Source: an uncultured virus (IMG/VR IMGVR_UViG_3300034407_003469)
Taxonomy: Duplodnaviria > Heunggongvirae > Uroviricota > Caudoviricetes
Strand: one strand, 5' to 3'
IMG/VR virus record: IMGVR_UViG_3300034407_003469
Length of the DNA: 64,000 nt
Shown here: in pieces, positions 10,588-36,887 of the stretch
Layout of the letters: each line of letters opens with the position of its first letter
Position numbering within the stretch: position 1 is the stretch's first letter
Translations under genes and position numbers: made by a program
Notes under the pieces: generated by a model
The model's database searches: none
What the model saw: the letters and a program-made list of their open reading frames with translations, nothing else
What the model was told of the DNA's origin: nothing

Positions 10588-11907
10588 CTATGTTTTTTCA
10601 ATTGGAAAATCGTGATTTCTAAATAATTTTCTTGCCCCTTGTTCATCTTCAAGCTGACTTTGAACAAATTCAGGGGAAGGCATAAAAAGATTTTTTCTTC
10701 TTAATTCAGGTCCTACAACATTAAACCTTGGTGTTTCTTCTGCTTCTTCTTCTGTAAGGCACTCATAACTTACCATAAGGTCTTTAATATACCTTAAACG
10801 GGACTTAATTTGCATTTGCCATTTAGGGTGCATTTGTCCATCTTCCCCTGCTACTTCTTTTAATTTTTCACTTAATTCATTAAATCTTGCATCTAAAAAT
10901 TTACACCCAAATTTATCAAATCCTGTTTCTATATTGTCTACAAAATCAGGAGTTATAAAAGATTGGTCAATATCAGGGGTTACTGTTTCTGCAATAAGTG
11001 GAGTAGATAAATCTACATAAGTATAATCTAAAACTATACGAATTGTTTGTTCAGGTAAAAGTGTATATCTAATTTTTGTAAAACCATCTAATATATAACC
11101 TTTTTCATCAGGAGTTACTATATAGTTCTGTTGTTGGTATGGGTCAATGGTTGGTGTAAGAACCTTTTGATAAACTCTACCTGTTGCTAAAGTTCTATCA
11201 AATAAAAATGGTTGTAGTAATTGTTGTTTTGATGCAGAATATAATTGAAAGTTTTTGACATCATAAGTTCTTCCTATTGTACTCCATAAGAAATCACTAT
11301 AACTAAAATTTGGATTTGATGCTACTACTGATACATTTGGATTAGATATTAAAGCAGGTGAAGATTGTGCTATCGTAGGAGTTGCCGTTATAGGTGCCCA
11401 AATGGGTCCTGTACCACCGAATAATTTAATTGCTCCTGCACCATAATTATATGCAGGATTGTTTACGGCTATATCATTTGCCGTTGCCCAAGCAGGGTCA
11501 ACAGTTACTTGAAAAGTAAATACACCTGTGCCACCACTCAAATCTATAATAACCCAATCTCCAATAACACTTAAAGTAGGGTTAGTATTTAAAAAATTCT
11601 CAAATTGGGCAGTAGTTAAAGTTTGAAGAGTAGCTACATTAGTAACCTCAACTGAAATTCCCACTCCAGAGGTAGTTTTAAATTTTATAGAAATACTACC
11701 GGGTTGGTTAAGAACCGAATTATACCACCAAAATAAGTCCCCAATAGTATTATTATATACAGGAGGAACACCATAATCAGCAAAATTTCCTGACCAAGAA
11801 TATACAGTTTCAGTTACACCACCACCTGTTAAATTTGAAGATTCAAAAATATCTATCTCTTGAGAATCATTTGAATTATTTGAAAAAGATACTACAAAAT
11901 TATCCAT
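10588..11907 (-). CDS. Paralogue of the candidate capsid protein with large insertion (minor capsid/turret candidate)
   Basis: YSDFLW...QKVLTPTIDPYQQQ...LDGFT matches YLEFLW...QKTLVPTIDPYQNQ...WDGFT of 36162-36887. Confidence 0.6.
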   Translation of the reverse strand: MDNFVVSFSNNSNDSQEIDIFESSNLTGGGVTETVYSWSGNFADYGVPPVYNNTIGDLFWWYNSVLNQPGSISIKFKTTSGVGISVEVTNVATLQTLTTAQFENFLNTNPTLSVIGDWVIIDLSGGTGVFTFQVTVDPAWATANDIAVNNPAYNYGAGAIKLFGGTGPIWAPITATPTIAQSSPALISNPNVSVVASNPNFSYSDFLWSTIGRTYDVKNFQLYSASKQQLLQPFLFDRTLATGRVYQKVLTPTIDPYQQQNYIVTPDEKGYILDGFTKIRYTLLPEQTIRIVLDYTYVDLSTPLIAETVTPDIDQSFITPDFVDNIETGFDKFGCKFLDARFNELSEKLKEVAGEDGQMHPKWQMQIKSRLRYIKDLMVSYECLTEEEAEETPRFNVVGPELRRKNLFMPSPEFVQSQLEDEQGARKLFRNHDFPIEKT

Positions 11908-12582
11908 TTATTTACTGTTTTTAATTATAGTAAACCATTCATTATTGTAGTCATTTAAATAGCCATTTTGGTCAATATTTAAAATTCTTTTTGTAACACC
12001 ATCATTTACATTGCCTCCAATTACTTCTATATTTCTTTTTTTTCTATTTACATCAACCACAATATCGCAATGTCCTTTATATGCTCTTGTAGTATCATAG
12101 TCCACCCCTGATTCTCTCGCATAACACACTAAATCTCCTAATTCAGGCTTTTTTTCTTCTAATTTATATGCTTTAAAATTAGAATTATTATTTGTTTTTC
12201 TGTTTTGTATAAAAGGTCTAATGTATTGATTATGTGCTGATGTATAAGGAAATTCACTTCCTGCCCCACTTTTACGCATCAAAAATGAAATGAAAGCAGA
12301 TGACCAAGGGGTATCTGAACACCCATCTTTATTTATGTTAACACCTTTACTCCAATATTCCCCCACTCTTTCTCTATATATATTGCTACACTCTATTTCT
12401 CCTGTTTCTTGCACTTCTCCTTGCGATATAAGAGGCTTTCCCCATAAAGCCCATTCTTTATTAGCATTTGATATAAGATTTCTTTTAAACCCACTTAATC
12501 GTAATCTTTTCAACAATATAAGTAAACCTGCTGAAACTAAAACTCCAAATGATATACCAATAACTAATTGACTTTTTTTCAT
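11908..12582 (-). CDS. Membrane-anchored DUF2272/CHAP-like peptidoglycan hydrolase
   Basis: N-terminal TM; PWSSAFIS, GDLVCY.R, HCDIVV, IGGNV. Confidence 0.7.
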   Translation of the reverse strand: MKKSQLVIGISFGVLVSAGLLILLKRLRLSGFKRNLISNANKEWALWGKPLISQGEVQETGEIECSNIYRERVGEYWSKGVNINKDGCSDTPWSSAFISFLMRKSGAGSEFPYTSAHNQYIRPFIQNRKTNNNSNFKAYKLEEKKPELGDLVCYARESGVDYDTTRAYKGHCDIVVDVNRKKRNIEVIGGNVNDGVTKRILNIDQNGYLNDYNNEWFTIIKNSK

Positions 12583-12980
12583 TTTTTCATTCTTGTGTAA
12601 ACATAGTAGCCAATAAGCATAAATGCTCCCCAATAATACCATTTAATTGGTTTATTTTCAAATACACCTCCATCTGCTTCTTCTCTTCCGTTGTCTGTTA
12701 AGGCTCCTCTTACTGCTTCTTCTACTTTATTGTATTTTAGCTTTATTACATTTACATCCGATGAAAAATCTTTAATTGATACTGTTTTATTATTGTAACC
12801 TATATAGGAAATAGTTATGAAATCAGATGGAAATACATCAATAGTGAAATATCCTTCTTTATCTGCCTTTGTTTTGGCACCATCATCTATAAGGTTACCA
12901 TCTTTATCAGTAACAATTATTGTAGCTTGAGGCAACACCTCTTTTGATTTACTATCTATTACTTGTCCTTTTGCTAACAT
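12579..12980 (-). CDS. Carboxypeptidase-regulatory-like (SusC N-terminal type) domain with C-terminal TM
   Basis: GQVIDS...LPQATI...ADKEGYFTI...ISYIGY. Confidence 0.7.
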   Translation of the reverse strand: MLAKGQVIDSKSKEVLPQATIIVTDKDGNLIDDGAKTKADKEGYFTIDVFPSDFITISYIGYNNKTVSIKDFSSDVNVIKLKYNKVEEAVRGALTDNGREEADGGVFENKPIKWYYWGAFMLIGYYVYTRMKK

Positions 12981-12987
12981 TTTTTTA

Positions 12988-13098
12988 TTATTTATCTTCT
13001 GTTTCTATTATATCATTAGAAACTACTCTATGAATTATTAAATACCCTGTTAGTAGCAATAATCCAATAAATATATCTTTTTTAACTTTCTTATTCAT
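12988..13098 (-). CDS. Small membrane protein (36 aa)
   Basis: Hand translation MNKKVKKDIFIGLLLLTGYLIIH... Confidence 0.5.
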   Translation of the reverse strand: MNKKVKKDIFIGLLLLTGYLIIHRVVSNDIIETEDK

Positions 13099-13102
13099 CC
13101 TC

Positions 13103-14971: not shown

Positions 14972-15637
14972 TTAATTCATTATTCTAACATCAAATATGC
15001 TCTGATTTGCAGAAACAATTCTTCTGTTAACTTCTTCCCAATTTATTATATTAAATATATTCTTGACATATCTCTCTCTATCAGAGTCGTATTTAAGATA
15101 ATATGCGTGTTCCCATACATCTATACCTAATAAAGGAAAAGATTGATACTCGGGCATATATGGGTTATCTTGATAAGGAGTAGCAAGTATGTTTGTACTC
15201 CCATCTCTATTCATTACCCACCATACCCAACCTGAACCAAACCTTTTTTGAGATGCTTCTAAAATATATTCTTTGAATTGCCCATAAGTTCCAAAGTCCT
15301 GTATAATTTTAGCCAAAGAAACTCCAAAAGGAGCATTTGTCTTTTTTTTAGGATTTGGCTTGAGCATTTTCCAAAACATAGAATGATTTACATATCCTCC
15401 CCCATTATCTCTAATTTCAATTGGATATCTATCTATATTTTGCATAATCTTGATGACAGGCTCATTAATATCATATTTTTCAACTGCCTTGTTAAACTTT
15501 TTTAAATACCCCAAATAATGTTTATTATAGTGTATTTGCATAGTTTCCTCATCTATATAAGGCTCAAGAGCATCATAAGAATAAGGTAAACGGACAGATG
15601 AAAATTTTATCAACTCGTAATCATCATATTTATTCAT
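14972..15637 (-). CDS. sodA: Fe/Mn superoxide dismutase (Mn-type signatures)
   Basis: LPYSYDALEPYID..TM.IH..KH, NGGG..NH..FW, FGSGW.W, QDNP, DVWEHAYY. Confidence 0.92.
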   Translation of the reverse strand: MNKYDDYELIKFSSVRLPYSYDALEPYIDEETMQIHYNKHYLGYLKKFNKAVEKYDINEPVIKIMQNIDRYPIEIRDNGGGYVNHSMFWKMLKPNPKKKTNAPFGVSLAKIIQDFGTYGQFKEYILEASQKRFGSGWVWWVMNRDGSTNILATPYQDNPYMPEYQSFPLLGIDVWEHAYYLKYDSDRERYVKNIFNIINWEEVNRRIVSANQSIFDVRIMN

Positions 15638-15758
15638 TTTCAAACTTTTTATTTAATATTAAAAATCGTGTGGTAATTACCGAACTTCTCAATAAAGTGA
15701 AGGACCCAACTACACACACAACCATTAATATACTAATAGCAACTTTATTTTTCACTTA

Positions 15759-16986: not shown

Positions 16987-17280
16987 TTATGAACAAGAAC
17001 CACAAGCATTTGTCATATCAGTAGTTTGCCACTCTGTACCTTGCAGTCCACTCATATTTTGAAATACTCCTCCTTCTTGCCACATTGTTTCTCTGTTTCT
17101 TCCTGCTTGTTGCCATTCTGTTCCTGTAAAATTAGTATTAGCATCTTGCCAAGCAGTACCTCTAATACCATCTCTTTGCCAAGCCGTACCTGAATAGTTT
17201 GACATAGCAGTCATTCTTTCATATAATTTATAGGCTCCGAATCCTGCAAGTCCATAAATTGCGATTGTTTTTAAATCCAT
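16987..17280 (-). CDS. Membrane-anchored protein with five TxWQ repeats
   Basis: GTAWQ x2, GTEWQ x2, ETMWQ. Confidence 0.6.
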   Translation of the reverse strand: MDLKTIAIYGLAGFGAYKLYERMTAMSNYSGTAWQRDGIRGTAWQDANTNFTGTEWQQAGRNRETMWQEGGVFQNMSGLQGTEWQTTDMTNACGSCS

Positions 17281-17317
17281 TTTATTTTTTTTTAATTAAT
17301 TATTATTTAGTTACTAT

Positions 17318-17719
17318 TTATTTTAAAGGTAGTTCTAAAACTTTATTTCCTTGAAAAAGATAATCATTTTCAGGGTACATCATTTTTGAATTTCCTAAAT
17401 TATCTATACCCAAAACAGGAAAATCTACATCTTTCATAGTTATATTCCCACTTGGTATTACATTATAAGGTCTATTTACATCCTTACTATTTCTTTTATA
17501 TCCATCATTAGAGTAAACATCTCCTCCAAAACCTATTGATGCCGAACCACCTATTGGCAAACCTCCTATTACTCCATTTGAAGGAACACTAACAATATAT
17601 GGTTGAGATTGATTATTGTTTTGAAAAAAATTATCTTCATCAGAATCATTAAACCACGAATTTCGTGTATCTAATAAATTAGAAACATCTGCATATCCAT
17701 CTTTAATAATACTATTCAT
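17318..17719 (-). CDS. Hypothetical virion protein
   Basis: C-terminal GYKRNS...IPSGNITMKDVDFPVLGIDNLGN module, recalled from crAss-like phage proteins. Confidence 0.55.
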   Translation of the reverse strand: MNSIIKDGYADVSNLLDTRNSWFNDSDEDNFFQNNNQSQPYIVSVPSNGVIGGLPIGGSASIGFGGDVYSNDGYKRNSKDVNRPYNVIPSGNITMKDVDFPVLGIDNLGNSKMMYPENDYLFQGNKVLELPLK

Positions 17720-17864
17720 AACCTCTTTTCTCTAATTCTTCTTTTACTATTTTTTGTACCCCGGGTCTGAAAATATAAATTTCAGCCAACATTTCAAGTG
17801 CAATAAAAGTTCCTACTGCAACTGTAACTGTTCCCCAATTTATTTTATCACCGAATACTTTCAT
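17712..17864 (-). CDS. Small membrane protein (50 aa)
   Basis: Hand translation MKVFGDKINWGTVTVAVGTFIALEMLAEIYIF... Confidence 0.55.
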   Translation of the reverse strand: MKVFGDKINWGTVTVAVGTFIALEMLAEIYIFRPGVQKIVKEELEKRGYE

Positions 17865-17872
17865 ATTTCTAA

Positions 17873-18256
17873 TTAAAACATAAATCTTGAGCCACCCGGA
17901 ATTTCATAATAATCTTGACCCTCACATTTAAATGCTCCTTTTTTACCATTTGCATCTATCCAAAATTCAGATATAGTACAAGGTGTCTTACCATTAATAG
18001 TTCCTGTTGTTCCTATTTGTAACATTGCAGTAGCTTTTGTTCTATCTGCACTTGGTATTCCTATCCAACCCCCTGAACCCTCTCCTCCTGAATTTGCAAT
18101 ATTAATTGAATTGCTGAATGTAGGTGTTACGGGTGCGACAGGACCTGTTGGCATCATTGGTGCAGATAATCTGCTTTGCTTTCTTTTATTCATTACATAG
18201 TATGCTCCTGCTCCAACTACTGCAACAACTAAAATTAGTTTAGTGTTTTTGTTCAT
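17873..18256 (-). CDS. N-terminally anchored membrane protein
   Basis: N-terminal TM, Pro linker, small beta domain with 2 Cys. Confidence 0.6.
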   Translation of the reverse strand: MNKNTKLILVVAVVGAGAYYVMNKRKQSRLSAPMMPTGPVAPVTPTFSNSINIANSGGEGSGGWIGIPSADRTKATAMLQIGTTGTINGKTPCTISEFWIDANGKKGAFKCEGQDYYEIPGGSRFMF

Positions 18257-18276
18257 TTTATTTAATTTAAATTAAT

Positions 18277-18420
18277 TTACTTTTTTTTATATACCATCAT
18301 ACCTGTTTTGGTTTTTTTACCAACATAGGTACTACCATTATAGCTAAATGATTTTTTTCCTGATTTTCTTGCTCTTTCTTTAGCTACCATATATGCGTTC
18401 ATTTTTCTTTTCTTTGCCAT
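18277..18420 (-). CDS. Small highly basic protein (47 aa), candidate DNA-condensing core protein
   Basis: Hand translation MAKKRKMNAYMVAKERARKSGKKSFSYNGSTYVGKKTKTGMMVYKKK. Confidence 0.6.
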   Translation of the reverse strand: MAKKRKMNAYMVAKERARKSGKKSFSYNGSTYVGKKTKTGMMVYKKK

Positions 18421-18690: not shown

Positions 18691-19236
18691 TTATTTTTTT
18701 CTTAATATATATGCTATCGTTAATGCCCCTACTATTGCTACTCCAAAAATAAGAAGATTGTTCATAGTTTTTGCTTTTTCTTCTTCCATATCTCTTCTCA
18801 ATATTAAATCGGTTTGGGCTTTTCCCAATTCTATTGCTATTTCTTTTTTTGCATTTAATTCTGCTAATTCTCTATAAAAACGAGAATCTTCTTTTTGATA
18901 CTGCTCGTTACGAAGAGCCATTTGCTCATTAAATATTCTGTTTTTTGCTGATATTATTATATTAGTGACTGTTTCAGCTACCATACTAACTGCCGAGGCT
19001 ATTGCTATTACTATATTGGAATATGCCCCTTCTTCTACTCTCCTTTGAAATAATAATAATTCAGTAACAAAATCCTCATTTAACATATTATTTGCTACTG
19101 CTTTATTAACTTCATCAACAGGAGCATCCATAGATAAATTAGCATAATTATTTTTATTTAAAAACTCTATTACTAATGATTTGTAATCAAGTATAAATTC
19201 TGCGATACCTCTAAATACAATTTCTTTTCTTACCAT
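18691..19236 (-). CDS. Membrane protein: helical N-domain, hydrophobic segment, coiled coil, C-terminal TM
   Basis: Paralogue of 19236-19778 (DAPVD/DAPID; YSN). Confidence 0.65.
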   Translation of the reverse strand: MVRKEIVFRGIAEFILDYKSLVIEFLNKNNYANLSMDAPVDEVNKAVANNMLNEDFVTELLLFQRRVEEGAYSNIVIAIASAVSMVAETVTNIIISAKNRIFNEQMALRNEQYQKEDSRFYRELAELNAKKEIAIELGKAQTDLILRRDMEEEKAKTMNNLLIFGVAIVGALTIAYILRKK

Positions 19237-19778
19237 TATTTTTTTAATAATCTTGAGGCTATAAAAACTGCTAAAGAACCTCCTAATATTATATATACTA
19301 TATTATTTCTTTTATTTAATCTATTTTCTTGTATCATATTTTCTTCTTGTTGCAAATAATCTTGTTGTGCAATAAGAAATTGTTTTTGCATTTCTTTTCT
19401 GTTTATAAATGCTATTTCATTTAGAGTTTCTTTATTTAAATATCTTTGTGTATATCCTTGTCTAAATATTTCTTCTCTTTCTCTTTTACTATTCCGAATC
19501 TTGTTTTCAACTGCTACTCCTCCAACTATTACTACTATACTTGCTACAATCCAAACACATACTCCTGCACATACAACATTACTATATCCCTCGTTTGCTA
19601 TTGATTTTAAACCCTCTTCTAATGCTTTAGGGTTGTCTATAACAATTTCGTTTACAACATCAATAGGTGCATCTTGAGGCAATGAGGAAATCCCTAATCG
19701 GTTGATAAGGGAAATTACTTCCTGTTTGTTTTGCAGTATAAAAACTGCTAAAAATGATATTGCCTTTTTTTCTTTCAT
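19236..19778 (-). CDS. Membrane protein, paralogue of 18691-19236
   Basis: Same architecture. Confidence 0.65.
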   Translation of the reverse strand: MKEKKAISFLAVFILQNKQEVISLINRLGISSLPQDAPIDVVNEIVIDNPKALEEGLKSIANEGYSNVVCAGVCVWIVASIVVIVGGVAVENKIRNSKREREEIFRQGYTQRYLNKETLNEIAFINRKEMQKQFLIAQQDYLQQEENMIQENRLNKRNNIVYIILGGSLAVFIASRLLKK

Positions 19779-21963: not shown

Positions 21964-22080
21964 TTATCTTCCTGCTACATCTCTACCTTTTTGCCACCCA
22001 TATCCAAGTGCAAAAAACATTGCTCCTGTAAGTACAAGAGATACTGCGAAAGTTCCGATGTTCATATTTGATTTAGCCAT
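21964..22080 (-). CDS. Small membrane protein (38 aa)
   Basis: MAKSNMNIGTFAVSLVLTGAMFFALGYGWQKGR resembles the anchors of 32981 and 33297. Confidence 0.6.
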   Translation of the reverse strand: MAKSNMNIGTFAVSLVLTGAMFFALGYGWQKGRDVAGR

Positions 22081-24649: not shown

Positions 24650-24651
24650 AG

Positions 24652-26607: not shown

Positions 26608-26613
26608 ATTTCC

Positions 26614-27291: not shown

Positions 27292-27307
27292 TTTTTCTTA
27301 TTTTTAT

Positions 27308-27673
27308 TTATTTAACATATTTTTGATAAGCCATTAGACCAACTACACCTGCAACTACACCTATCCAATAGTTTTTTTGTGAGAATATACTTCCATATCC
27401 TTCACTTGAACCATCCATACCTACAAATACTTGGTCACGAGTTCCATCATTAGACCATTGTGGCTGAACATTTAAAGGAGTTTGTCCACTTCCCTCAAAT
27501 CCACTATAAGTTCTACTCATAGGTATAAAATTATCTGATTTTGTACTACATCTATATCCTCCACCATCACAAGAAAAACATCTATTTGGATGACATACAC
27601 CACAAGTATCACAACCTTCTCCTACTACTTGATGAGTTCTATTTGAAACCATTCTATTATTTCTTAAAGCCAT
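27308..27673 (-). CDS. Cys-rich protein with C-terminal TM
   Basis: 6 Cys; QWSNDG..QVF.G.DG. Confidence 0.6.
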   Translation of the reverse strand: MALRNNRMVSNRTHQVVGEGCDTCGVCHPNRCFSCDGGGYRCSTKSDNFIPMSRTYSGFEGSGQTPLNVQPQWSNDGTRDQVFVGMDGSSEGYGSIFSQKNYWIGVVAGVVGLMAYQKYVK

Positions 27674-27691
27674 TTTTTTTATTTTTTATTA

Positions 27692-28150
27692 TTAATTAAA
27701 CCAAAGTCTATCTTCATAACCACCAAATCCTTGCTGATTAAAATTACTATATCCACTAAAATTACTTGAGCATCCTACATTTGCATTAGGATTATAATTT
27801 GTTGCATTAGGGTCAGTACAACCTGAAACTGCACTTATACAAGAACCATCATCTGTATTAGCATTAGGGTCATAATTTAAACTTCCTACTTGAGTACAAC
27901 CAAATTGTGGCAAAGGTGGTGGTGGTGCATATTGACACGAACCATCATCACAAGTTGCATTATTATCATAATTTGTTGCTCCTGAATCCATACAACCCCC
28001 ATAACTACAAGGGCAATTTCCTATCGTTGATGCACAAGTTGGATAAGAACTTATTCCACTTTGATTATAATACCCACCTGTTCCTCCTGCATATGAAAAA
28101 CCTGAATCTAACCAAGTTGCTTCTGTATCATTATTTTCTAAAAATCCCAT
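27692..28150 (-). CDS. GCTD-ATNY-DDGSC repeat protein
   Basis: Three GC(M/T)(D/Q)...NY.....DDGSC-type repeats. Confidence 0.65.
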   Translation of the reverse strand: MGFLENNDTEATWLDSGFSYAGGTGGYYNQSGISSYPTCASTIGNCPCSYGGCMDSGATNYDNNATCDDGSCQYAPPPPLPQFGCTQVGSLNYDPNANTDDGSCISAVSGCTDPNATNYNPNANVGCSSNFSGYSNFNQQGFGGYEDRLWFN

Positions 28151-28183
28151 TTACTTTTTTTTTATTTATTACTTTTTTTTAGT

Positions 28184-28239
28184 AAGAGAGAGAGTGGGGA
28201 CACACCCTCCCCATCCCTCTTACGAGTTATCTCTCTCTT
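28184..28239. other. GC-rich intergenic inverted-repeat structure
   Basis: AAGAGAGAGA/TCTCTCTCTT outer arms and TGGGGA/TCCCCA inner arms. Confidence 0.55.
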
Positions 28240-28264
28240 GGCTTTGCACACAATCAACAAACAA

Positions 28265-29074
28265 TTATGGTAATTCATTTATAAAATCTTCTTCTGTCAT
28301 TATTTCTCCTTCGGCTTCTCCATTAAATGAATAACCTTTTCCTTGACCATAGTTATGTTCTAAATTACTTTGTGGTGGATAATCATCATTAAAAACATAG
28401 TGATTTTGATAAAAATCTCCGAATGGACTACTATATTTTGTTCCAAATCCGGGTACATTAAAATTAGAATATGTTTCATTGTACCCTGCCGATGCTAAAG
28501 CATTATCACTTACATCTGCTCCACTTATTATACTATTAAATTGGCTCTGTCCAATTTGCATATCGTTACAATCACACTTTTCCCACAAGAAACCTGAACT
28601 TTCACATAAACCATAAAATCTTCCAAGTTGTTTTGCAGTAGCTTGTCCTAATTGACCATCTACCACAAGATTACTATGCTGACCCGGGTATGAAGGCTGA
28701 CAAGCCCAATTTGTGCTATCTCCACCTGTACTACTTAATAATCCACTTGGATTATGTTTTTCATTTATAGCAAGTTGTATTTGAGCAACTTTTTTGCAAC
28801 TATCCCCTACTCTTAATGGAAAAGCACAAGAGCCTACTTGAGTAGTTTCGCCATCTTGAGGAGTATATACATTGTTCAATTCATTTAACCTATTTTCTTC
28901 ATTTGGAGTTAAATTATTTTTATTTCTTAATCTTTCTAATTCTCTTCTTTCACTTGAAGAAAGACTACTACTTGAAGAACGACCTTTTAAAATAGCACGA
29001 ATACCAAAAAACAATCCTGTTGCTAATACTATTCCTCCAATACTATATAATCCTATTTTTATTCCTTTTTTCAT
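28265..29074 (-). CDS. Membrane-anchored peptidoglycan-binding-like protein
   Basis: FPLRVGDSCKKVAQIQ...VVDGQLGQAT. Confidence 0.6.
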   Translation of the reverse strand: MKKGIKIGLYSIGGIVLATGLFFGIRAILKGRSSSSSLSSSERRELERLRNKNNLTPNEENRLNELNNVYTPQDGETTQVGSCAFPLRVGDSCKKVAQIQLAINEKHNPSGLLSSTGGDSTNWACQPSYPGQHSNLVVDGQLGQATAKQLGRFYGLCESSGFLWEKCDCNDMQIGQSQFNSIISGADVSDNALASAGYNETYSNFNVPGFGTKYSSPFGDFYQNHYVFNDDYPPQSNLEHNYGQGKGYSFNGEAEGEIMTEEDFINELP

Positions 29075-29075
29075 A

Positions 29076-29531
29076 TTATGCTTGTCTATATGATGGTTTT
29101 TCTGATAATAGCCTACCTATCATATTAATTTCACTTTTATTTAAATTACCAATCTTCGTTCTTAAATCTCCATATCCTTTTGACCCAAACTTTTCTGAAA
29201 CTTGACTTAATGCAACACCATCAGGAATACTTCTTATAACTGATTTAATCTCTTCTTCATTATCATTAAAAAAACCAAATGCAGAATCTAACCTATTTGT
29301 TAGTTGCAAAACGGTTCCCTCTGTTAATAATATATAATTACCATTAGTATATCCTTTATAATAACTTGGATTAAACCAATCATCATAATTGTTTATGTTT
29401 AATGTTGCCCCACCTATTGCAGTCAATATTTTATTATACAATCTTTTTTTAGAAATAGAACTGATAACTAAATATATACCCCCTATTGCTACAAGGGATG
29501 CACCTACATATATTTTATTTTTTCTATTCAT
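29076..29531 (-). CDS. Membrane-anchored annexin-like repeat protein
   Basis: LDSAFGFFNDNEEEIKSVI...LSQVSEKF...GDLRTKI. Confidence 0.5.
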   Translation of the reverse strand: MNRKNKIYVGASLVAIGGIYLVISSISKKRLYNKILTAIGGATLNINNYDDWFNPSYYKGYTNGNYILLTEGTVLQLTNRLDSAFGFFNDNEEEIKSVIRSIPDGVALSQVSEKFGSKGYGDLRTKIGNLNKSEINMIGRLLSEKPSYRQA

Positions 29532-29533
29532 TT

Positions 29534-29950
29534 TTATTTTCTTACTGCTTCTGACATTCCTCTACTTCCTATTGCTGATGCAACTCTTGTTGAGCCTTCA
29601 GGAGTTTTTATTATGTTATAAATCATTAGACCTGCTCCCCCTACAATTAACAATAAGACAATTTTTGTAGTAGTAGATGCAAAATTTATTGTTCCACCTA
29701 AAAAATTATATACTCCACCTCCAAAGTCAGTCAATCTATCAAGAGCATTTCTATCTAAATCAACACCTTGACTTCTCATATATTCTCTTACCTCAACATT
29801 ATCACCCGGCATTTCCTTATCAAAATTCATCATCCACAACTGATTAGCATTAGCCTTCCCTACACACTTTTTTAGTGCTTTATGCCACTCTATCCAAGCA
29901 GAATAACTACTTGATGAGGAAGGTAATATTAAACAAGTTTGTGTTGACAT
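29534..29950 (-). CDS. Membrane protein
   Basis: WIEWHKAL...AN..W domain plus TM. Confidence 0.6.
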   Translation of the reverse strand: MSTQTCLILPSSSSSYSAWIEWHKALKKCVGKANANQLWMMNFDKEMPGDNVEVREYMRSQGVDLDRNALDRLTDFGGGVYNFLGGTINFASTTTKIVLLLIVGGAGLMIYNIIKTPEGSTRVASAIGSRGMSEAVRK

Positions 29951-29954
29951 TTTT

Positions 29955-30437
29955 TTAATCTATAAATTTTATTACAAAAATTATTATTATTCCTGCTATA
30001 ATAATATCATTAGTATTATTTTTAGTAGGCATACTTATGCTTGGAGTAATTGGCTCTGATATAATTTCCTCTACTTCTGTTTCAGGCAAAGGGTCGCCAA
30101 TACTATCATTTGGCTTTTCTTTATCATCAATATCCATTTCAAAAACATCATCTCTTTCTTCACGAGTTATATCCTCTAAATTATCTCTTTTTTTCTTTTC
30201 AGAAACGAGAACACTTAATTTTTGACTTAACAGGTCGGCATCTTCTAAACTACTTGGTTGAACAGAAGATAATTCTTGAATCATAGACTGCAAATCTTCA
30301 TAACTCATTTCACTTACATTAGGTGAACCTGCTGACATTCTTCTTTTTGATGGTACATTGTAATAAGTAACATTATCATCTCCCCAAGCCGAATCACTTT
30401 TTGAAAAATTATCTTGTATATTATTTATAAATCCCAT
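29955..30437 (-). CDS. Acidic protein with C-terminal TM
   Basis: Ile-rich C-terminal helix; GDPLP shared with 18433. Confidence 0.55.
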   Translation of the reverse strand: MGFINNIQDNFSKSDSAWGDDNVTYYNVPSKRRMSAGSPNVSEMSYEDLQSMIQELSSVQPSSLEDADLLSQKLSVLVSEKKKRDNLEDITREERDDVFEMDIDDKEKPNDSIGDPLPETEVEEIISEPITPSISMPTKNNTNDIIIAGIIIIFVIKFID

Positions 30438-30438
30438 A

Positions 30439-30888
30439 TTAAACTATATTAGATATTGATGAAATTTGACAAGTCTTTCTTGCCATATTATATGCAGTTT
30501 TAAAACCCGGTCCAATAATTCCATCTACTCCTCCTGAACCATCAATTATGTTTTTGATATCAGGACTTAAATTAGATAAATTTTTCTGCATAGTTGAAAC
30601 TTGGGCACTTGAATAATTTGCTGAATTAATATTATCAAAAGTATAAGGGTCAGCAGGTGCATTACAAGACACTCCTGAATTACTATTAGTCTTATTTGCA
30701 AATATTTCAGTAAATAAATTACCAAAAGTTGTTCCCAAACTATCAACCGTAGCCGTAGAAGGGTCATACTGATTACCCGATGTTACAGTTGTTGTTGTTG
30801 TTGATGTTCTACGAGTTAATAGATATATTCCTACACCTAATGCACCTAAAACTCCGACACCAATAAGTACCTTATTAGTATCTTTCAT
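30439..30888 (-). CDS. Membrane-anchored peptidoglycan-binding-like protein
   Basis: VSTMQKNL...GVDGIIGPG..TAY. Confidence 0.55.
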   Translation of the reverse strand: MKDTNKVLIGVGVLGALGVGIYLLTRRTSTTTTTVTSGNQYDPSTATVDSLGTTFGNLFTEIFANKTNSNSGVSCNAPADPYTFDNINSANYSSAQVSTMQKNLSNLSPDIKNIIDGSGGVDGIIGPGFKTAYNMARKTCQISSISNIV

Positions 30889-30892
30889 ATAT

Positions 30893-31252
30893 TTATTTTT
30901 TTATGTATTTATTGTATGCCCAAAAACCTACTACAAGTGCACCTGCCAAGAAAATAACTCTTCCTGTTGGGAAATTTTTCACACCTGCTGAACCTGAAAG
31001 TTCAGTTCCACCTACATTGACAGAACCACTAACTCCTGCTCCTTTTGGAAATTCAATATTTTCATCTGCGTTGTCTAAAACAACTTGTTCAGGAGTTCTT
31101 GTTGGCTCCGTGAAACCTGTCCCATCTCCATTTGCATTTAAAAATTCTTCGTTTTCTACGAATTTTTCTCCATATTTAATTTTTTGTTCTCCTACCCAAT
31201 CGCTAAATGGAGTTGTTGAACCTGAAAGTTTGTAAACTTGATTTGCAGTCAT
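30893..31252 (-). CDS. C-terminally anchored membrane protein
   Basis: TANQVY..SG...PF..W domain, FLNANG, TM. Confidence 0.6.
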   Translation of the reverse strand: MTANQVYKLSGSTTPFSDWVGEQKIKYGEKFVENEEFLNANGDGTGFTEPTRTPEQVVLDNADENIEFPKGAGVSGSVNVGGTELSGSAGVKNFPTGRVIFLAGALVVGFWAYNKYIKK

Positions 31253-31276
31253 TTTTTTTTATTTAATTGTTAATTT

Positions 31277-31690
31277 TTATTTTCTTTTTAATAATACTAT
31301 TGCTAACACTCCTAATAAACCATACATAATTAGGTTGCTTCTTTTTGATTCTTCTCTTTGTGCCTGTAATTCCATATTTAAATTAGAAATTTCAGCTTGT
31401 ACTTGTGCAGATTTAGTTCTGTCAATTACATTATTGGCTTTATCTCTTACACCATCTTTTATTTTATTAATTGTAGCACTAAATCCACCCCCACTATCAG
31501 GTCTGTTATTTGTTTTAATTATAACTTTATTTCTATTTTGACCTTCTTGTATTGCATCTATTTGATTCTGTGCATTTTCTTGCAATTGAGAAAATGTATT
31601 GCCTATGGTTGTACCCATAGACCCAAAATTGTTGTAATCTTCTTCAAAACTACCCCAACTATTTCCATTAAAATCACTATCTAAAAACAT
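31277..31690 (-). CDS. Coiled coil + C-terminal TM protein
   Basis: N-terminus MFLDSDFNG..WGSFEED resembles that of 19783-20304. Confidence 0.6.
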   Translation of the reverse strand: MFLDSDFNGNSWGSFEEDYNNFGSMGTTIGNTFSQLQENAQNQIDAIQEGQNRNKVIIKTNNRPDSGGGFSATINKIKDGVRDKANNVIDRTKSAQVQAEISNLNMELQAQREESKRSNLIMYGLLGVLAIVLLKRK

Positions 31691-31700
31691 ATCTTTTTTT

Positions 31701-32234
31701 TTAATTATCCATTACCCCGTTCTTAAAACGGTAGGCTCCTAATCTTAAACCATCAACTCCACCAAATCTTGACCTATTTCTACAATTTGAGTTTGGAAAA
31801 ACTCCATCTCCACTATTATCAAGATTATCACATCCTCTATCCCAAGTTAACACAGGCTCATAAGCATATTTATTACCATCAACTTCAATAACTGCATCAC
31901 CTGATTGATTAAACCATAAATCTCTCGTTTGACTACCTCTTTGACCACCATTTTGATTAAACCATAAATCTCTTGATTGTCCTCCTCCATTAGCATTTAA
32001 CATTGATGGAGTAATATTTTGATAAGGGTCAATTGGAGTAACAAATGTTCTCGTTGATGTGTTTCCTGCTACTGCATTTCCTGTTGTAACAGAATAGTTA
32101 CTTGTAGGTCCTCCTATTCCTCCTCCTCCAAAAATAGAGCCGTAGTCACACCCACTTCCATCAGGTAGACTACATAAAGGGTAACACGGGTCATTAGTAA
32201 CATACCGACCATTACATAACATTGTTTTACTCAT
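31701..32234 (-). CDS. Cys/Gly-rich protein with two RDLWFNQ repeats
   Basis: 21-bp identical units at 31905-31925 and 31953-31973. Confidence 0.6.
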   Translation of the reverse strand: MSKTMLCNGRYVTNDPCYPLCSLPDGSGCDYGSIFGGGGIGGPTSNYSVTTGNAVAGNTSTRTFVTPIDPYQNITPSMLNANGGGQSRDLWFNQNGGQRGSQTRDLWFNQSGDAVIEVDGNKYAYEPVLTWDRGCDNLDNSGDGVFPNSNCRNRSRFGGVDGLRLGAYRFKNGVMDN

Positions 32235-32238
32235 AATT

Positions 32239-32970
32239 TTATTTTTTAGTCATTCTTGTTATACCATACACAATTCCTCCAATTAATAAAACTCCTATAC
32301 CTATGTTTAATGGAGTCATTCCTGTTGGTGATACTGAACCTTGAGAAAATAATTGTTGATTAAATTGGGCTTCTCTTTGAAAATTTGCTTCTTCTCCTGC
32401 ACAAGCTGATTCTTTTCCACTTCTTACACTTGATATTCTTGTTTCTCGGGTCTTTCTTGCTCTTGCATTTACTCTTCTTGCTCCTTTACCTCCACCATCT
32501 TTGTTAGCTTCCAAGTTTTCAAGGTCATTTTCTAATCTATTTAAGCTATCAGTCAATACAGAACAACTACCTGAATTAGGATAATTGGCATTTACTTTTG
32601 ATTGTTCATCTTTTTCTCTATTAGCTTCTCTTTTTTTAGAACTCCAAGTAATACCGAATAATCCCGGGTGGTTAAACCATAAATCACTATCAGGCATTTG
32701 AGAATTGTCATTTTCAGGTAATACTAATTCCATATTTGGACTCATACCATCATAATTTAATGCCGTTCCATAAATTTCTGACACTCTTACTACTTCATCT
32801 TCCGTAAGTTCAGTTGTTTGATTAGTATCATTATTACCATCAAAACCTGTGAAAACTTGGTTTTCTATTCCATCGTTAGCCCATTGGCTACCATCAAAAC
32901 CTGTAAATACTTGGTTTTCACTTCCATCGTTAGCCCATTGGCTTCCATCAAAATTTTTATATTTTTCCAT
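32239..32970 (-). CDS. Membrane protein with FDGSQWANDG repeats and NHPGLFGITWS motif
   Basis: Paralogue of 19783-20304; start 32970 preferred. Confidence 0.65.
   Translation of the reverse strand: MEKYKNFDGSQWANDGSENQVFTGFDGSQWANDGIENQVFTGFDGNNDTNQTTELTEDEVVRVSEIYGTALNYDGMSPNMELVLPENDNSQMPDSDLWFNHPGLFGITWSSKKREANREKDEQSKVNANYPNSGSCSVLTDSLNRLENDLENLEANKDGGGKGARRVNARARKTRETRISSVRSGKESACAGEEANFQREAQFNQQLFSQGSVSPTGMTPLNIGIGVLLIGGIVYGITRMTKK
32837..32953 (-). repeat. 54-bp tandem repeat (FDGSQWANDG.ENQVFTG)
   Basis: ccatcaaaa recurs at 32837, 32891 and 32945. Confidence 0.75.
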
Positions 32971-32980
32971 AATTTTTTTT

Positions 32981-33277
32981 TTAAGCTGATTCTTTTCCTT
33001 TATAATATCCATATCCTATTACAAAAAATAGAACACCAACTGATAATAATGATACTGCATATGCCCCTACACTCATAGAGCCATTTGAATCCGTACCACT
33101 CATATTACTATATCTCCTTCTTGTTCCCATATTTGCTATCTGTTGCGATGTTCTATTTTTAGGGTTATTTGGTAAACATTGTTGACCTCCTGTTACGCAA
33201 TCCTGACAAGTACAATCGCCCGCCTCTGGTCCTCTATCCGTACAAGTACCACATCCTACTCCTACTATTTCTGCCAT
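32981..33277 (-). CDS. Cys-rich small membrane protein
   Basis: 6 Cys, YSNMSG, C-terminal TM. Confidence 0.6.
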   Translation of the reverse strand: MAEIVGVGCGTCTDRGPEAGDCTCQDCVTGGQQCLPNNPKNRTSQQIANMGTRRRYSNMSGTDSNGSMSVGAYAVSLLSVGVLFFVIGYGYYKGKESA

Positions 33278-33296
33278 AATTTTTTATTTTTATTTA

Positions 33297-33605
33297 TTAA
33301 TTTGCTTTCTTTTTACCTTTCATTATACTATATCCTACTATAAAAGCAGTTAATCCTACTGCTAAATATCCAAATACCATTTGACCAATATTTCTTGAGC
33401 CTTGTTTAGTCCCATCAAATGAACGAAATGATAATTCTTGTCCTCTTGGACCTCTATTAGTTCCTCGTGTCCCACCTCCTGTAACTAAAACTCCTCCATC
33501 ACAACATCCCTCGCATCCCGTTGTCCTATTTGATGAACAATCTGCCGGAGGGCTTACTCCTCGTGTTACTGTTGTTCCATTATTACATTTACAAAATTGT
33601 GCCAT
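33297..33605 (-). CDS. Cys-rich small membrane protein
   Basis: 6 Cys, FRSFDG, C-terminal TM. Confidence 0.6.
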   Translation of the reverse strand: MAQFCKCNNGTTVTRGVSPPADCSSNRTTGCEGCCDGGVLVTGGGTRGTNRGPRGQELSFRSFDGTKQGSRNIGQMVFGYLAVGLTAFIVGYSIMKGKKKAN

Positions 33606-33618
33606 AATTTTTTTTTAT

Positions 33619-34452
33619 TTAATTATTACTTGCTCTCAAATTAGGTGAACTATATTGAGTGCTAAATTTATTTCTTTCAAAATTTGTTATAAACTGATTT
33701 AAAACTTCAAATCTTTCTTTATTTTGAGCAGTAGGAGTATCTTTAAAAGTTGTTAAAAAACTCTGATATGCCTCAATTCTTGGATAACCAAGTGCTAAAT
33801 AAATTAATAATCCGTTTAAATCTGCTTCTGTTTCATCTTCCATATTTTCATTTAAGTAAAAATGAGCAAACTCGTGCAATAAAATTGCCATTCTCATTGG
33901 TACTGTAAATTTTTTAAAGTGAGCCTTACTCACTTGTATAATTCCTTTTGACTGACTAATTCTTGCAGGGGTCTGTATTACCATTCCTCTTTTATTTCTT
34001 ATATCATCAAAGTAATCTATTCTAAAATTTCCCTCATCAGATATATAGGTGCTTCCGTTTGGAAACTTTCCTGCACTTAATATACCTGCATTATCAGAGA
34101 ATTGTTGAGCAAAATTGCAAAAATCTCTAATTTTAGGATTACTCCAATCTACACAGTCCATTTTTCTTTCTAAAGGTCTTGCATCTATCTTAACAACTTT
34201 AAAAGTTGGGTCTTGACCTTTTTGTAAATTTCCGTTTGCCTTATTATATACTGATATTAATGCTTCATACGGTGAAATTGGCATCCTAACAAAAAATCTT
34301 TGTTTACCATCAACCGTTGAGTGCCTATTAGTGTAATCAGTATTAGGCTTATTTATGTCTTTAACAATCACTTGAATTTTTTGAGGTGCATTTGTTACAA
34401 CCTCAATCATTATTGTAAGTGGTTTCTGTTTTGTTTTAAATAATATATTCAT
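33619..34452 (-). CDS. Zincin-type metallopeptidase (candidate maturation protease)
   Basis: ILLHEFAHFYL followed by ETEAD. Confidence 0.65.
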   Translation of the reverse strand: MNILFKTKQKPLTIMIEVVTNAPQKIQVIVKDINKPNTDYTNRHSTVDGKQRFFVRMPISPYEALISVYNKANGNLQKGQDPTFKVVKIDARPLERKMDCVDWSNPKIRDFCNFAQQFSDNAGILSAGKFPNGSTYISDEGNFRIDYFDDIRNKRGMVIQTPARISQSKGIIQVSKAHFKKFTVPMRMAILLHEFAHFYLNENMEDETEADLNGLLIYLALGYPRIEAYQSFLTTFKDTPTAQNKERFEVLNQFITNFERNKFSTQYSSPNLRASNN

Positions 34453-34577
34453 CTTCTAAATAATACTATAATTATTGTAGCTACTATTATTGTTCCTCCT
34501 GCTATTAATATATTTTTTACAGGTATTCCCTGTACTTCTGCTTCTAATTTTTCTGTTTCGTAAGGTTGGAAAGCCAT
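34449..34577 (-). CDS. Small membrane protein (42 aa)
   Basis: Hand translation ...KNILIAGGTIIVATIIIVLFRR; coupled at both ends. Confidence 0.6.
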   Translation of the reverse strand: MAFQPYETEKLEAEVQGIPVKNILIAGGTIIVATIIIVLFRR

Positions 34578-34870
34578 TATTCATCTCTTTTAAAATTAAT
34601 TATATTTTCTTTTGATAAATAACCACCTGCTAATCCTCCTGCTAAAACCCCCATCCAAACACTTTTTTTTCTCCATAAAGACAAAATTGCCCCAATAACA
34701 CTTCCTAATACTGCTCCTTTCAACATCTCTTTTGAACCTTTTTTCAATAAAGATGCTTGAGAGTCATTTACAATTGTATTGACATTCTCTTGTGTAGATG
34801 ATGGAATACTCATATTATTAGAAACATTTTTATTTCTATCAATCGTTATTTCTTCCTCTTCTTCCCACAT
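34577..34870 (-). CDS. Glycine-zipper membrane protein
   Basis: GAVLGSVIGA...GVLAGGLAGG. Confidence 0.6.
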   Translation of the reverse strand: MWEEEEEITIDRNKNVSNNMSIPSSTQENVNTIVNDSQASLLKKGSKEMLKGAVLGSVIGAILSLWRKKSVWMGVLAGGLAGGYLSKENIINFKRDE

Positions 34871-34881
34871 ATATCAAAGAA

Positions 34882-35586
34882 CTATTTATTTTTTCTACTA
34901 CTATAAATAGAAAAACCAATAATTGCTATTGCACCAATACCTAATAAGATGTATGTAATAGTATTACCACCTCCTATTCTTGACTCTGTAACACCACTAA
35001 CTTGTTGGTTTGCAGTCAAATTCATTTGTTGTAACATTAATTCTTGATTCATTTTTGCAAGTTGTAACTCGTGTGCTCTTTGCTCCTCTGCATTTTTGAA
35101 AGTCTTGTTACTTTGACCTATTCCAACAATAGTTCCAAATAACTGAACACCTGTGCTTATAATTTCTCCTGTTCCAAAACTACTACCACCACCACTTGGA
35201 GAGGTTGTTGTTGGAGTTGTTCCTGTTTGATTCATAAATGCATCTCTGCTTACATCAGTATCAAATTCTGTTACTGCTTCTTTAGTTTTACCTAAAGGAT
35301 TACTTCCTTTTATAAATGGTAATTGATTAGCAACAATTAATTCCATCATTTTAGTTCTTACACATAAATCTGTTAAATTATATGCAACTGCACCTACTAA
35401 ATCTCTTTTGGTTGGTCTTGCATTAATACTAACTCCACAACCTATTAGGGCTTTACTAACTTCAGCAGGTCTACCTTCAATTACTTTAGTTAGTTCCGAT
35501 AACATCAACTCTCGTGTTACATTCATATCTTTTGTTTTTAATATTGCTTTAAAATTTTCAGAGAAATTATGATAAGTGTATCTCAT
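34882..35586 (-). CDS. Virion membrane protein (helical N-domain, amphipathic helix, Gln coiled coil, TM)
   Basis: FMNQTG motif; architecture like 18691 and 19236. Confidence 0.6.
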   Translation of the reverse strand: MRYTYHNFSENFKAILKTKDMNVTRELMLSELTKVIEGRPAEVSKALIGCGVSINARPTKRDLVGAVAYNLTDLCVRTKMMELIVANQLPFIKGSNPLGKTKEAVTEFDTDVSRDAFMNQTGTTPTTTSPSGGGSSFGTGEIISTGVQLFGTIVGIGQSNKTFKNAEEQRAHELQLAKMNQELMLQQMNLTANQQVSGVTESRIGGGNTITYILLGIGAIAIIGFSIYSSRKNK

Positions 35587-36056
35587 TATTTCTTCGCTAT
35601 CATATATCCAACTGCAAATCCAATTGCTAATAAAATAACAGGAGAATTTCCATATTGTGAATTTCCAATTCTTTTATCTAACTCATTCTTACTTCTATTC
35701 AATTTGTCTATTAGCATTTGTTGTTTAACATCTCTTATCTCTTCTACTACTTTAGATGCCTGTTCATCATTTAATCCACTCCCATCTTCAATTGGCTCTT
35801 GCAAACCCGGTGTTCTACCTGTTGCATAAGCAAAATCTTTTTCTGAAATATTATTTGTTGTAAATGAAGATAGTAATTCTTTATCAGGATGTATAGTAGT
35901 CAAATCCTGTAAAGCTATTTTTTTGTATTTTCTTACAATTCTTTTAAGCCTACTTATTATTTCATCTATACTACGAGTAGGTCTTAAACCATAATTCTTC
36001 AAGAGTTCATTTGCCCCTGAAGAATTGTTTACTGCTATATATTCGTATAAAGTCAT
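35586..36056 (-). CDS. Virion membrane protein
   Basis: Helical N-domain, HPDK, FAYATG, C-terminal TM; first gene after the capsid candidate. Confidence 0.6.
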   Translation of the reverse strand: MTLYEYIAVNNSSGANELLKNYGLRPTRSIDEIISRLKRIVRKYKKIALQDLTTIHPDKELLSSFTTNNISEKDFAYATGRTPGLQEPIEDGSGLNDEQASKVVEEIRDVKQQMLIDKLNRSKNELDKRIGNSQYGNSPVILLAIGFAVGYMIAKK

Positions 36057-36080
36057 TTATATACTTTTTTAATTTCTTTT

Positions 36081-36133
36081 TAAATAAAATGGGGCTCAAA
36101 ACAAATGCCTTTGCAATTGCCTCTGCCCCATTT
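36081..36133 (-). terminator. Probable intrinsic terminator/attenuator after the capsid candidate
   Basis: AAATGGGGC...GCCCCATTT inverted repeat with T-rich tail on the minus strand. Confidence 0.5.
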
Positions 36134-36161
36134 AAGTTAATCTCTAAAGTTAATATTTCTA

Positions 36162-36887
36162 CTAACCCTGTAATGCACGAGCAACTCCTTGACCAAGAAC
36201 AATCTTGTCTTGTCTTACTACATTTGGATTACCATAACCACGAGCAATTGAATTGCCTGTTAATGCACGACCTTGAGAAACAGTTTCAGATGGGTACAAG
36301 TAAACTTTTAAAGTTCTTGTTGTAGCAATCTTGTTAACTGTTAATGTAGTAAAGCCATCCCACTTGTAAGTGTGCTTTAATACAGTAATGTCAGTTTGGT
36401 TTTGGTAAGGGTCAATTGTAGGAACAAGAGTTTTTTGTTGTTGGTTACCGTTAGAGTCAACTACTTTTACTGTGATAGTTTCAAGAACCGCAGCAGAACC
36501 TCCATCACTTTGTAGGTAAGTTAATCCAACCACGAATGGTTTAGATGAACTTTGCCATAAAAATTCAAGATAAGTTACTCCTGAAATACCCATTGTGTAC
36601 TCAATACCTTCCGTGTTAGCTTTTGTGCCAACAGTCGTTGTGATATTGTTGTACGCACCACCAACCTCAACATTGGAAATATCCGCTGCTGATGAGTTGT
36701 AAAGTGATATGATATAAGGTTGTGATGAACTTGCATCAGCAGACCCCATAGCATTTAGGTATTCTTCTTCTGAACCACCAAAGTCAAAAGCATCATCCCA
36801 ATCAGAGAATTCGCCACCGTTAGCTGACATAAACTCGTTAGAGATGTTTTCTTCTGCATCAGAGAAATAATGATTTAAATTTTCCAT
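36162..36887 (-). CDS. Candidate major capsid protein (single jelly-roll-like) with acidic N-terminal extension
   Basis: Beta-strand pattern, C-ending codon bias unlike neighbours, long leader plus terminator, near the packaging ATPase, has a paralogue. Confidence 0.55.
   Translation of the reverse strand: MENLNHYFSDAEENISNEFMSANGGEFSDWDDAFDFGGSEEEYLNAMGSADASSSQPYIISLYNSSAADISNVEVGGAYNNITTTVGTKANTEGIEYTMGISGVTYLEFLWQSSSKPFVVGLTYLQSDGGSAAVLETITVKVVDSNGNQQQKTLVPTIDPYQNQTDITVLKHTYKWDGFTTLTVNKIATTRTLKVYLYPSETVSQGRALTGNSIARGYGNPNVVRQDKIVLGQGVARALQG

Follow-up and report, generated by a model that had tools for sequence, protein, structure and literature searches.

Paralogous jelly-roll-like proteins as candidate shell and vertex proteins of a marine virus lineage with no recognisable tailed-phage genes

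The cultured tailless phages known to combine double-stranded DNA (dsDNA) with a jelly-roll capsid have small genomes, of about 10 to 30 kb. In the sphaerolipoviruses the genes of the major capsid proteins (MCPs) are adjacent. The abstract of the profile that the International Committee on Taxonomy of Viruses (ICTV) gives to these viruses describes them as tailless, with an internal membrane, a linear genome with inverted terminal repeats (ITRs) and two types of MCP. Counted with them among the closest described systems are vertex proteins of the PRD1 and PM2 type (penton base P31; PM2 spike P1) and the penton protein of mavirus. The subject here is a stretch of 64,000 nucleotides from an uncultured virus (IMG/VR record IMGVR_UViG_3300034407_003469), called the window from here on, and two proteins encoded in it, A and B (Table 1). 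An earlier note on this sequence took A and B for jelly-roll paralogs, one an MCP, the other a turret or minor capsid protein with a large inserted domain.

There is much in the window that recalls the Sphaerolipoviridae and other Helvetiavirae (P23-77 VP16/VP17, SH1 VP4/VP7, HCIV-1). Here as there, two paralogous single-jelly-roll-like proteins of unequal size are found, one of which may be enlarged by an extra domain, beside a capsid gene (here a candidate one) lies that of a small P-loop ATPase, small membrane proteins are many, and the genome may be linear with ITRs, seen here in two of the five relatives that IMG/VR rates as complete. The comparison fails because of genome size and gene arrangement: the complete relatives measure 68.8-102 kb rather than about 30 kb or less, and the two genes stand 17-25 kb apart. 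Unlike the described systems, moreover, the elaborated paralog is specific to one clade and highly variable, neither A nor B matches a PDB chain by sequence, the apparent hosts are mesophilic bacteria of sea and fresh water, and neither a terminal protein nor a protein-primed polymerase was recognised. The double jelly-roll MCPs of the Bamfordvirae (PRD1 P3, PM2 P2, FLiP) have two rolls in one chain and form pseudo-hexameric trimers. No sequence similarity to them was found, and A and B each have one roll in the predicted structure.

I propose that the window covers the greater part of an uncultured marine phage genome, that this phage belongs to a large lineage, that B would be its shell-forming MCP with a single jelly-roll core, and that A would belong to another, ancient lineage of paralogs (S/A), of which each genome compared has one copy. 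The S/A protein of most relatives would be a bare jelly roll of about 150 aa, most likely a penton-base-like protein at the fivefold vertices. In the clade of the window, a projecting domain of about 165 residues would have been inserted in the loop that follows the second strand, with a helical tail of about 140 residues as a further addition, and A would then unite in one polypeptide a vertex base, an outward knob (probably host-recognising) and an inward anchor. The gene of B, for its part, would lie next to those of a packaging ATPase and of several small membrane proteins in a row; the acidic leader of B may be removed or act in assembly, and a basic arm would form its C-terminus. For the reading as a whole, a lineage of linear-dsDNA, tailless, membrane-containing marine phages with B as shell and S/A as vertex, I would set the probability at about 45%. 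It is built on observations of homology, domain layout, gene conservation and synteny, the lack of recognisable tailed-phage genes and the ITRs of relatives, which are taken up in turn.

Judged by their sequences, A and B are true paralogs that share a domain of about 105 residues, because three comparisons agree on it. BLASTP aligns residues 202-297 of A with 105-198 of B (37.7 bits, E 2e-7, 32/97 identical or 33%). Alignment of the two families by hhalign (57 B-type and 44 A-type sequences) joins B 84-197 to A 181-293 over 105 columns with a probability of 98.8% and E 6.5e-17. When the six-frame open reading frames (ORFs) of the whole window are searched with a hidden Markov model (HMM) built from the B family, A is recovered at E 2e-15; the next match after A has E 0.0015 and covers a 22-residue motif only. 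The similarity claimed in the earlier note is therefore far above chance, and both ORFs carry on the minus strand the motifs that it quoted: NFVVSFSN, YSDFLW, QKVLTPTIDPYQQQ, LDGFT and IRIVL in A, and PYIISLYN, YLEFLW, QKTLVPTIDPYQNQ, WDGFT and LKVYL in B. That PYIISLYN and NFVVSFSN are equivalent first strands is suggested by the structural models, and the sequence statistics are silent on it. A third weak family match in the window, at 31701-32234, has the TPIDPYQN motif alone in common with the family and was not counted as a member.

The databases hold 840 homologues of B and 54 of A. None has a functional name and none, when checked, is annotated as a tail or baseplate protein, an annotation that would have spoken against a capsid role. 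No relative of A or B was found in Pfam, PHROGs, NCBIfam (0 matches for 19 proteins) or PDB. Sequence searches of PDB, whether by single sequence or by profile (for B, A, the ATPase and a 277-aa protein encoded near B), gave nothing meaningful, and comparison with the ESM Atlas is uninformative, giving scores of 0.81 or less and unnamed eukaryotic clusters alone.

Then there are the structures predicted by AlphaFold2. In the model of B (mean confidence score, pLDDT, 64) about ten strand segments make up a core at residues 58-199, with a pLDDT of 61-88 per ten-residue block, and the leader (15-54) and residues 203-228 are disordered. The model of A (pLDDT 77.4) has strands at 2-20, a separate domain at about 30-190 (80-96 per block), strands again at 192-298 and helices at 320-429. 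Both cores are predicted to be jelly-roll-like beta-sandwiches, with the roughly eight antiparallel strands and the jelly-roll topology of viral capsid proteins, and in both models all the high-ranking structural matches that span the whole core are jelly rolls. Some are viral capsid proteins (P3 of PR772 and PRD1, the FLiP MCP, and those of CPMV, STMV, GFLV and PBCV-1) and others are not viral capsids (the carbohydrate-binding module AlgX CBM 6.9, nucleoplasmin cores, C1q/TNF, lectins, fibre tips). The top Foldseek match of A is the mavirus penton protein, at E 2.8e-4.

In the model, the jelly roll of A is split by an insertion after its first two strands, because jelly-roll chains align across A from residue 1 to about 300 yet match only about 100 residues, and other chains, the FliD cap domains, align to residues 34-184 alone. 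Thus the roughly 150 extra, beta-rich residues that had been noticed after the first strands of A appear in the model as a confidently predicted inserted domain of about 165. Other claims made from the letters alone have fared equally well: the shared domain is jelly-roll-like in both models, A ends in a helical extension, and A lacks the acidic leader that occupies some 55 residues of B. A search with the inserted domain alone against 1.84 billion representatives found four proteins, two of them A-type and two short and unassigned, probably fragments; by this measure the domain is not a recognisable shared module.

A is best understood through its relatives. The family HMM finds in each of the five complete relatives one B-type protein (open frames of 233-248 aa) and one short S-type protein (147-173 aa, the lengths being those of ORFs in four genomes and, in G001, of an open frame of 150 aa). 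One S/A copy is thus present in all five and in the window. There are extra family copies as well: one genome has a 229-aa B-like protein, and the 102-kb genome has two short copies and a 397-aa tandem form. A maximum-likelihood tree of 29 domain sequences makes the A-type (98/97) and the S-type (100/98) each a group and places them together on one side of a branch (88/91), with the B-type, tandem and extra copies on the opposite side. A one-residue deletion and an LLP motif are common to A and S. The S gene stands at the end of the late operon, after three small conserved ORFs and before a variable protein of 397-1241 aa, next to RecT and exonuclease genes. In the window A fills the equivalent position, immediately following a DUF2272/CHAP protein (Pfam DUF2272 E 2.1e-29, CHAP E 1.1e-4; hydrophobic segment at residues 26-44). 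A is a clade-specific elaboration of the short paralog that all five complete relatives carry.

The elaboration takes several forms. Some members of the A clade have no C-terminal extension (284-286 aa), others have a further insert (487-524 aa), and lengths in the S/A lineage as a whole range from 147 to 524 aa, variability that is expected of an exposed, host-facing part. Branch lengths in the tree make S/A homologues far more divergent than those of B, whose full-length members run from 228 to 264 aa. Both types are universal, the B-type being uniform and S/A plastic in structure. I suggest a vertex role for S/A because of its small basic size, its gains and losses of domains, its extreme divergence, and the large variable protein and cell-wall hydrolases that adjoin it. 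A fits a vertex or spike-base protein better than it fits a second shell protein.

The case for B as the shell protein draws on the genes around it. Among 64 IMG/VR loci that carry a B homologue, the order PAP2 protein, 361-aa protein, ATPase, B, small proteins with hydrophobic tails and 277-aa HExxH protein is kept, and besides B (64 loci) the ATPase is present in 62, the 361-aa protein in 59, and the PAP2 and 277-aa proteins in 56 each. The ATPase gene is upstream of B, directly or within a few kb, in 62 of the 64. Its product has a Walker A motif and an hhhhED motif with invariant G, K, D and E columns. Of 25 orthologues, 16 match PHROG 2666, "terminase large subunit" in the category "head and packaging" (best E 2e-7), 14 match AAA_22, 11 the HerA central domain (best E 1.1e-5) and four Zot. 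The Pfam matches of the window's own copy all stay under the gathering score (20.6 bits, with a cut-off of 23.2), and matches of the ATPase profile in PDB are restricted to the ClpB P-loop.

RNA adds a little. Contigs of four metatranscriptomes were placed on positions 22001-42000. In two of them, from different studies (X18 and X19), contigs lie over B and its upstream spacer with a word depth of 90-305, compared with about 0-8 in most other bins. Two metatranscriptomes have RNA contigs that span about 36168 to 37203, and in X18 adapter sequence abuts both positions; an abundant transcript of about 1 kb, of B alone, would fit. Since contig depth cannot rank genes, the depth over B is only a weak hint of a shell role. 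That role is nonetheless what I would assign to B, because it is universal and uniform in size, keeps its leader and C-terminal arm conserved in the family alignment, lies beside the ATPase gene and has the RNA hint in its favour.

A membrane in the particle is suggested by the PAP2 core gene and by hydrophobic segments in 30 of the 90 minus-strand ORFs. Most of these segments fall in the interval 11.9-36 kb, and many stand at the extreme C-terminus. Going by their sequences, the three ORFs directly downstream of B are candidate virion membrane proteins, and the 156-aa and 97-aa ORFs are common to all six genomes compared. Dense small ORFs fill 16000-36100 on the minus strand. Those with a single hydrophobic segment, at the extreme C-terminus, include the ones at 18691, 19236, 19783, 25927, 26614, 29955, 32239, 34882 and 35586, and within this run 18691-19236 and 19236-19778 are tandem paralogs.

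The evidence against a tail comes from gene content. Pfam and PHROGs searches of 86 window ORFs found RecT, a PD-(D/E)XK exonuclease, RusA, Mom, HNH, an Amidase_3 endolysin, PG-binding and DUF2272/CHAP proteins, methyltransferases, PAP2, an Fe/Mn superoxide dismutase and a 2462-aa helicase-containing protein. Among these ORFs there was no portal, TerL-type terminase, HK97 MCP, tail tube or other tail protein. The complete 68.8-kb relative has no tailed-phage hallmark gene in 71 ORFs searched with Pfam and 74 with PHROGs, and its sole "tail" matches are to a 159-aa lysozyme domain. A member of Caudoviricetes should have an HK97-fold MCP, a portal and a large terminase with a nuclease; the profile searches found none of them, and the sole "terminase" match was the 270-aa ATPase. 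A, B and the ATPase have no match among 50,697 deposited phage records. IMG/VR classes two of the complete relatives as ITR-bearing, and their repeats proved perfect, 127 bp long in the 68,799-bp record (G003) and 123 bp in the 72,545-bp record (G002); the other three complete relatives have none. In both ITR-bearing genomes (L075-L078 in G003, L083-L086 in G002) transcription runs from either end towards the interior.

The family is large, at least 1123 protein clusters, and its database members lie on contigs of up to about 100 kb from marine and other metagenomes. DNA nearly identical to the B region occurs in 14 seawater or marine DNA runs from six studies, some of them possibly the source sample, and parts of the region occur in six RNA runs from four studies. 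Among GTDB species genomes the family appears on just 10 contigs of metagenome-assembled genomes (MAGs), assigned to many unrelated taxa: Flavobacteriales, Gammaproteobacteria, Opitutia, Sediminibacterium, Bathyarchaeia (two contigs of one MAG), Planktophila, Ignavibacteria, Alphaproteobacteria and Legionellales. These labels gave no host assignment, and the contigs are probably viral ones that were mis-binned. The peptidoglycan enzymes point to bacteria as hosts.

How else might the pair be read? B and S/A could both be MCPs, joined as in sphaerolipoviruses into heteromeric pseudo-hexameric capsomers, with the insertion of A as the capsomer "tower". All six genomes compared do have two jelly-roll paralog lineages of unequal size, and the ATPase beside B, the ITRs of relatives and the many small hydrophobic ORFs would suit such a virus. 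It is hard, however, to fit into a lattice position a protein that grows by whole domains, and S/A is encoded far from B in a different gene block and has diverged much further. The fold searches of A and B list no chain of P23-77, SH1, HCIV-1 or PM2 P1, which shows nothing either way. I consider two MCPs quite unlikely, because S/A is small, plastic and divergent and lies near the variable protein and cell-wall hydrolases. Of the MCP and turret pair in the earlier note there remain the paralogy, the jelly-roll-like fold and the inserted domain, with which A fits a turret, vertex or minor capsid protein; B has properties that an MCP should have, and the genome, with an ATPase gene beside B, looks like that of a tailless virus rich in membrane proteins. 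It is not a fixed pair: A is restricted to a clade, with its 54 homologues against 840 for B. The distance between the genes was rightly noticed, and it separates gene blocks, unlike the adjacency of the sphaerolipovirus genes. A serious rival, unlikely as I hold it to be, is that the whole family consists of surface, receptor-binding or membrane-associated beta-sandwiches, with the capsid encoded by one of the unannotated ORFs or built on a new fold. C1q/TNF-like and carbohydrate-binding rolls (BclA, C1q, AlgX CBM, CBM16/32) share the general fold and are among the best structural matches. Unlike them, B has no collagen or coiled-coil stalk and no known sugar-binding motif, it is uniform in length with a conserved leader and arm, and it sits in a conserved, morphogenesis-like gene block where, with the ATPase, it is the most widely conserved gene. 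Nor, among the core proteins of the lineage, about 17 in number, does any other of suitable size have a capsid-like feature.

The phage-type RecT, exonuclease, RusA, Mom and endolysin genes, the large unannotated proteins of 718-2462 aa and the T7-type nozzle proteins in the Foldseek list of A might all be expected of a very divergent tailed phage, whose hallmark genes escape the profiles and in which A and B are parts of a head decoration or tail fibre. I find this very unlikely, given that the window and the complete 68.8-kb relative both lack hallmark matches, that the only packaging-like ATPase has 270 aa and no nuclease part, and that none of the deposited phage records is matched. It is less likely still, extremely so, that this is no virus at all, that it is a mobile element, perhaps a linear plasmid-like one, with B as a jelly-roll subunit that is secreted or resembles a pilus component. 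Linear plasmids too have ITRs, Ena-type pilus subunits are among the weak structural matches, and the MAG contigs with family members are spread over many phyla. Against this, there are endolysin-type amidases, IMG/VR and CheckV class the relatives as complete viruses, no conjugation or partition gene is among the Pfam and PHROGs matches in the window or the 68.8-kb relative, and scatter across unrelated phyla fits free viral contigs that were mis-binned.

The reading of B as shell and S/A as vertex has its own difficulties. The quality of the B model is modest. The matches of the ATPase are weak and mostly confined to the P-loop region. About half of the ORFs have no assignment, and the actual capsid protein might be encoded by one of these. 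Neither a DNA polymerase nor a terminal protein was recognised in the window or the 68.8-kb relative, and protein-primed replication is therefore unsupported by gene content. As for the RNA, two of the four runs (X15 and X17) have no depth peak over B, and X18, less so X17, peaks also at 27.3-28.7 and 30.7-31.3 kb, over small cysteine-rich and membrane-anchored ORFs.

One state of the fold deserves separate mention. A 397-aa ORF (L073 1207-2400, equal to G004 17225-18418) comprises two complete tandem B-type domains, each running from LPYI or LPFT through DPYQQQ and DGFT to FYPE. The tandem form occurs in at least 41 clusters (381-410 aa, 49-97% identity over 92-100% of the query, on contigs of up to 110 kb), is limited to one related subclade, and accompanies a normal B-type gene. 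As far as the sequence goes, it may be a natural fusion from single to double jelly roll.

Microscopy counts, echoed in published abstracts, suggest that the sea is rich in non-tailed particles. A broader claim, which I offer tentatively and with more doubt than confidence, is that the window represents an undescribed global lineage of tailless membrane phages of about 65-110 kb, with a single-jelly-roll shell, a paralogous vertex protein that acquires and sheds entire domains, and one subclade in which a tandem duplication of the shell domain has become fixed. If this is so, the lineage could account for part of the ocean's non-tailed particles, its linear genomes would extend the range over which this virus architecture is known, and the tandem subclade would be a living example of the transition from single to double jelly roll. 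Related genomes hold one fold in several states (plain, domain-inserted, extended, tandem-duplicated), and the evolution of capsid proteins by duplication and insertion is therefore open to direct test. Because I infer the capsid assignment, the proposal has the value of a well-defined lead. In the literature examined no account of such a lineage was found, including portions of Yutin et al. 2018 (PMC5894146), a result that depends on the search terms chosen.

Table 1. Features of A, B and their surroundings; nucleotide positions are those of the window
Feature	Residues	Nucleotides	Strand	Remarks
B, candidate major capsid (shell) protein		36162-36887	-	241 aa
B, acidic leader	1-55	36723-36887	-	
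B, jelly-roll-like core	56-200	36288-36722	-	
B, basic C-terminal arm	201-241		-	conserved
A, paralog of B in the S/A lineage, candidate vertex (penton-base-like) protein		10588-11907	-	439 aa
A, first jelly-roll strands	1-25	11833-11907	-	
A, inserted domain	~26-190	11338-11832	-	
A, remaining jelly roll	191-300	11008-11337	-	
A, helical C-terminal extension	301-439	10588-11007	-	
DUF2272/CHAP-like protein, membrane-anchored, candidate cell-wall hydrolase		11908-12642	-	244 aa; ends at A start
Core protein with invariant HExxH		33619-34452	-	277 aa; H193-E194-x-x-H197; N-terminal part beta-rich
Three ORFs directly 3' of B		34577-36056	-	156, 234, 97 aa; hydrophobic segment at or near each C-terminus
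Non-coding stretch upstream of B		36888-37390	-	503 nt
P-loop ATPase, candidate genome-packaging ATPase		39759-40571	-	270 aa; GKKGIGKT; LLLIEDI
Acidic proline-rich core protein, candidate scaffold or DNA-binding protein		42448-43533	-	361 aa; RRRGRPKKK stretch
PAP2-family (lipid phosphatase-like) core protein		45163-46074	-	303 aa; Pfam PAP2 E 1.3e-11

Of the core proteins in Table 1, the 277-aa protein has faint metallopeptidase matches (E 0.015-0.04, in one or two of 22 members) and, from its sequence, is a possible zinc metallopeptidase or virion peptidase. It is speculative that it could process the leader of B as a maturation protease. Scanning the surroundings of B for promoters and terminators gave no more than chance would, with 9 found against 8.7 expected and 0 terminators.

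The window has 30% G+C, and its genes, with few exceptions, lie on the minus strand; neither the tRNA scan nor the Rfam scan had a match. The left end (1-3721) is read from the plus strand, has 37% G+C in its first 2 kb and encodes a 769-aa protein with a faint TPR match, together with a 111-aa ORF of PHROG 13182 that is also present in G003. On the minus strand, 27308-29074 encodes small cysteine-rich proteins, with repeated NATNYxPNAN-like motifs in the 152-aa ORF; these have high RNA-contig depth in X18 and X17 and are not conserved in the five relatives. A 119-aa core ORF (30893-31252) also has raised depth in X18. The 2462-aa protein (53741-61129, minus strand) has SNF2/helicase parts and PHROG matches that are DarB-like or methyltransferase-like. 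Near it, also on the minus strand, are a DUF5824 protein (47164-48858) and a 904-aa core protein (48858-51572); in one relative the DUF5824 protein adds Zeta-toxin-like kinase and ART-PolyVal domains and is a "polyvalent protein". A complete Fe/Mn superoxide dismutase gene (14972-15643, minus strand; Sod_Fe_N E 5.9e-23, Sod_Fe_C E 1.3e-32) stands within the viral late region and is a candidate auxiliary metabolic gene. Finally, a Mom-like DNA modification protein (3723-4391, minus strand; Pfam Mom E 7.6e-31) and methyltransferases, including those at 37652-39106 and 39248-39754, suggest that the DNA is heavily modified.

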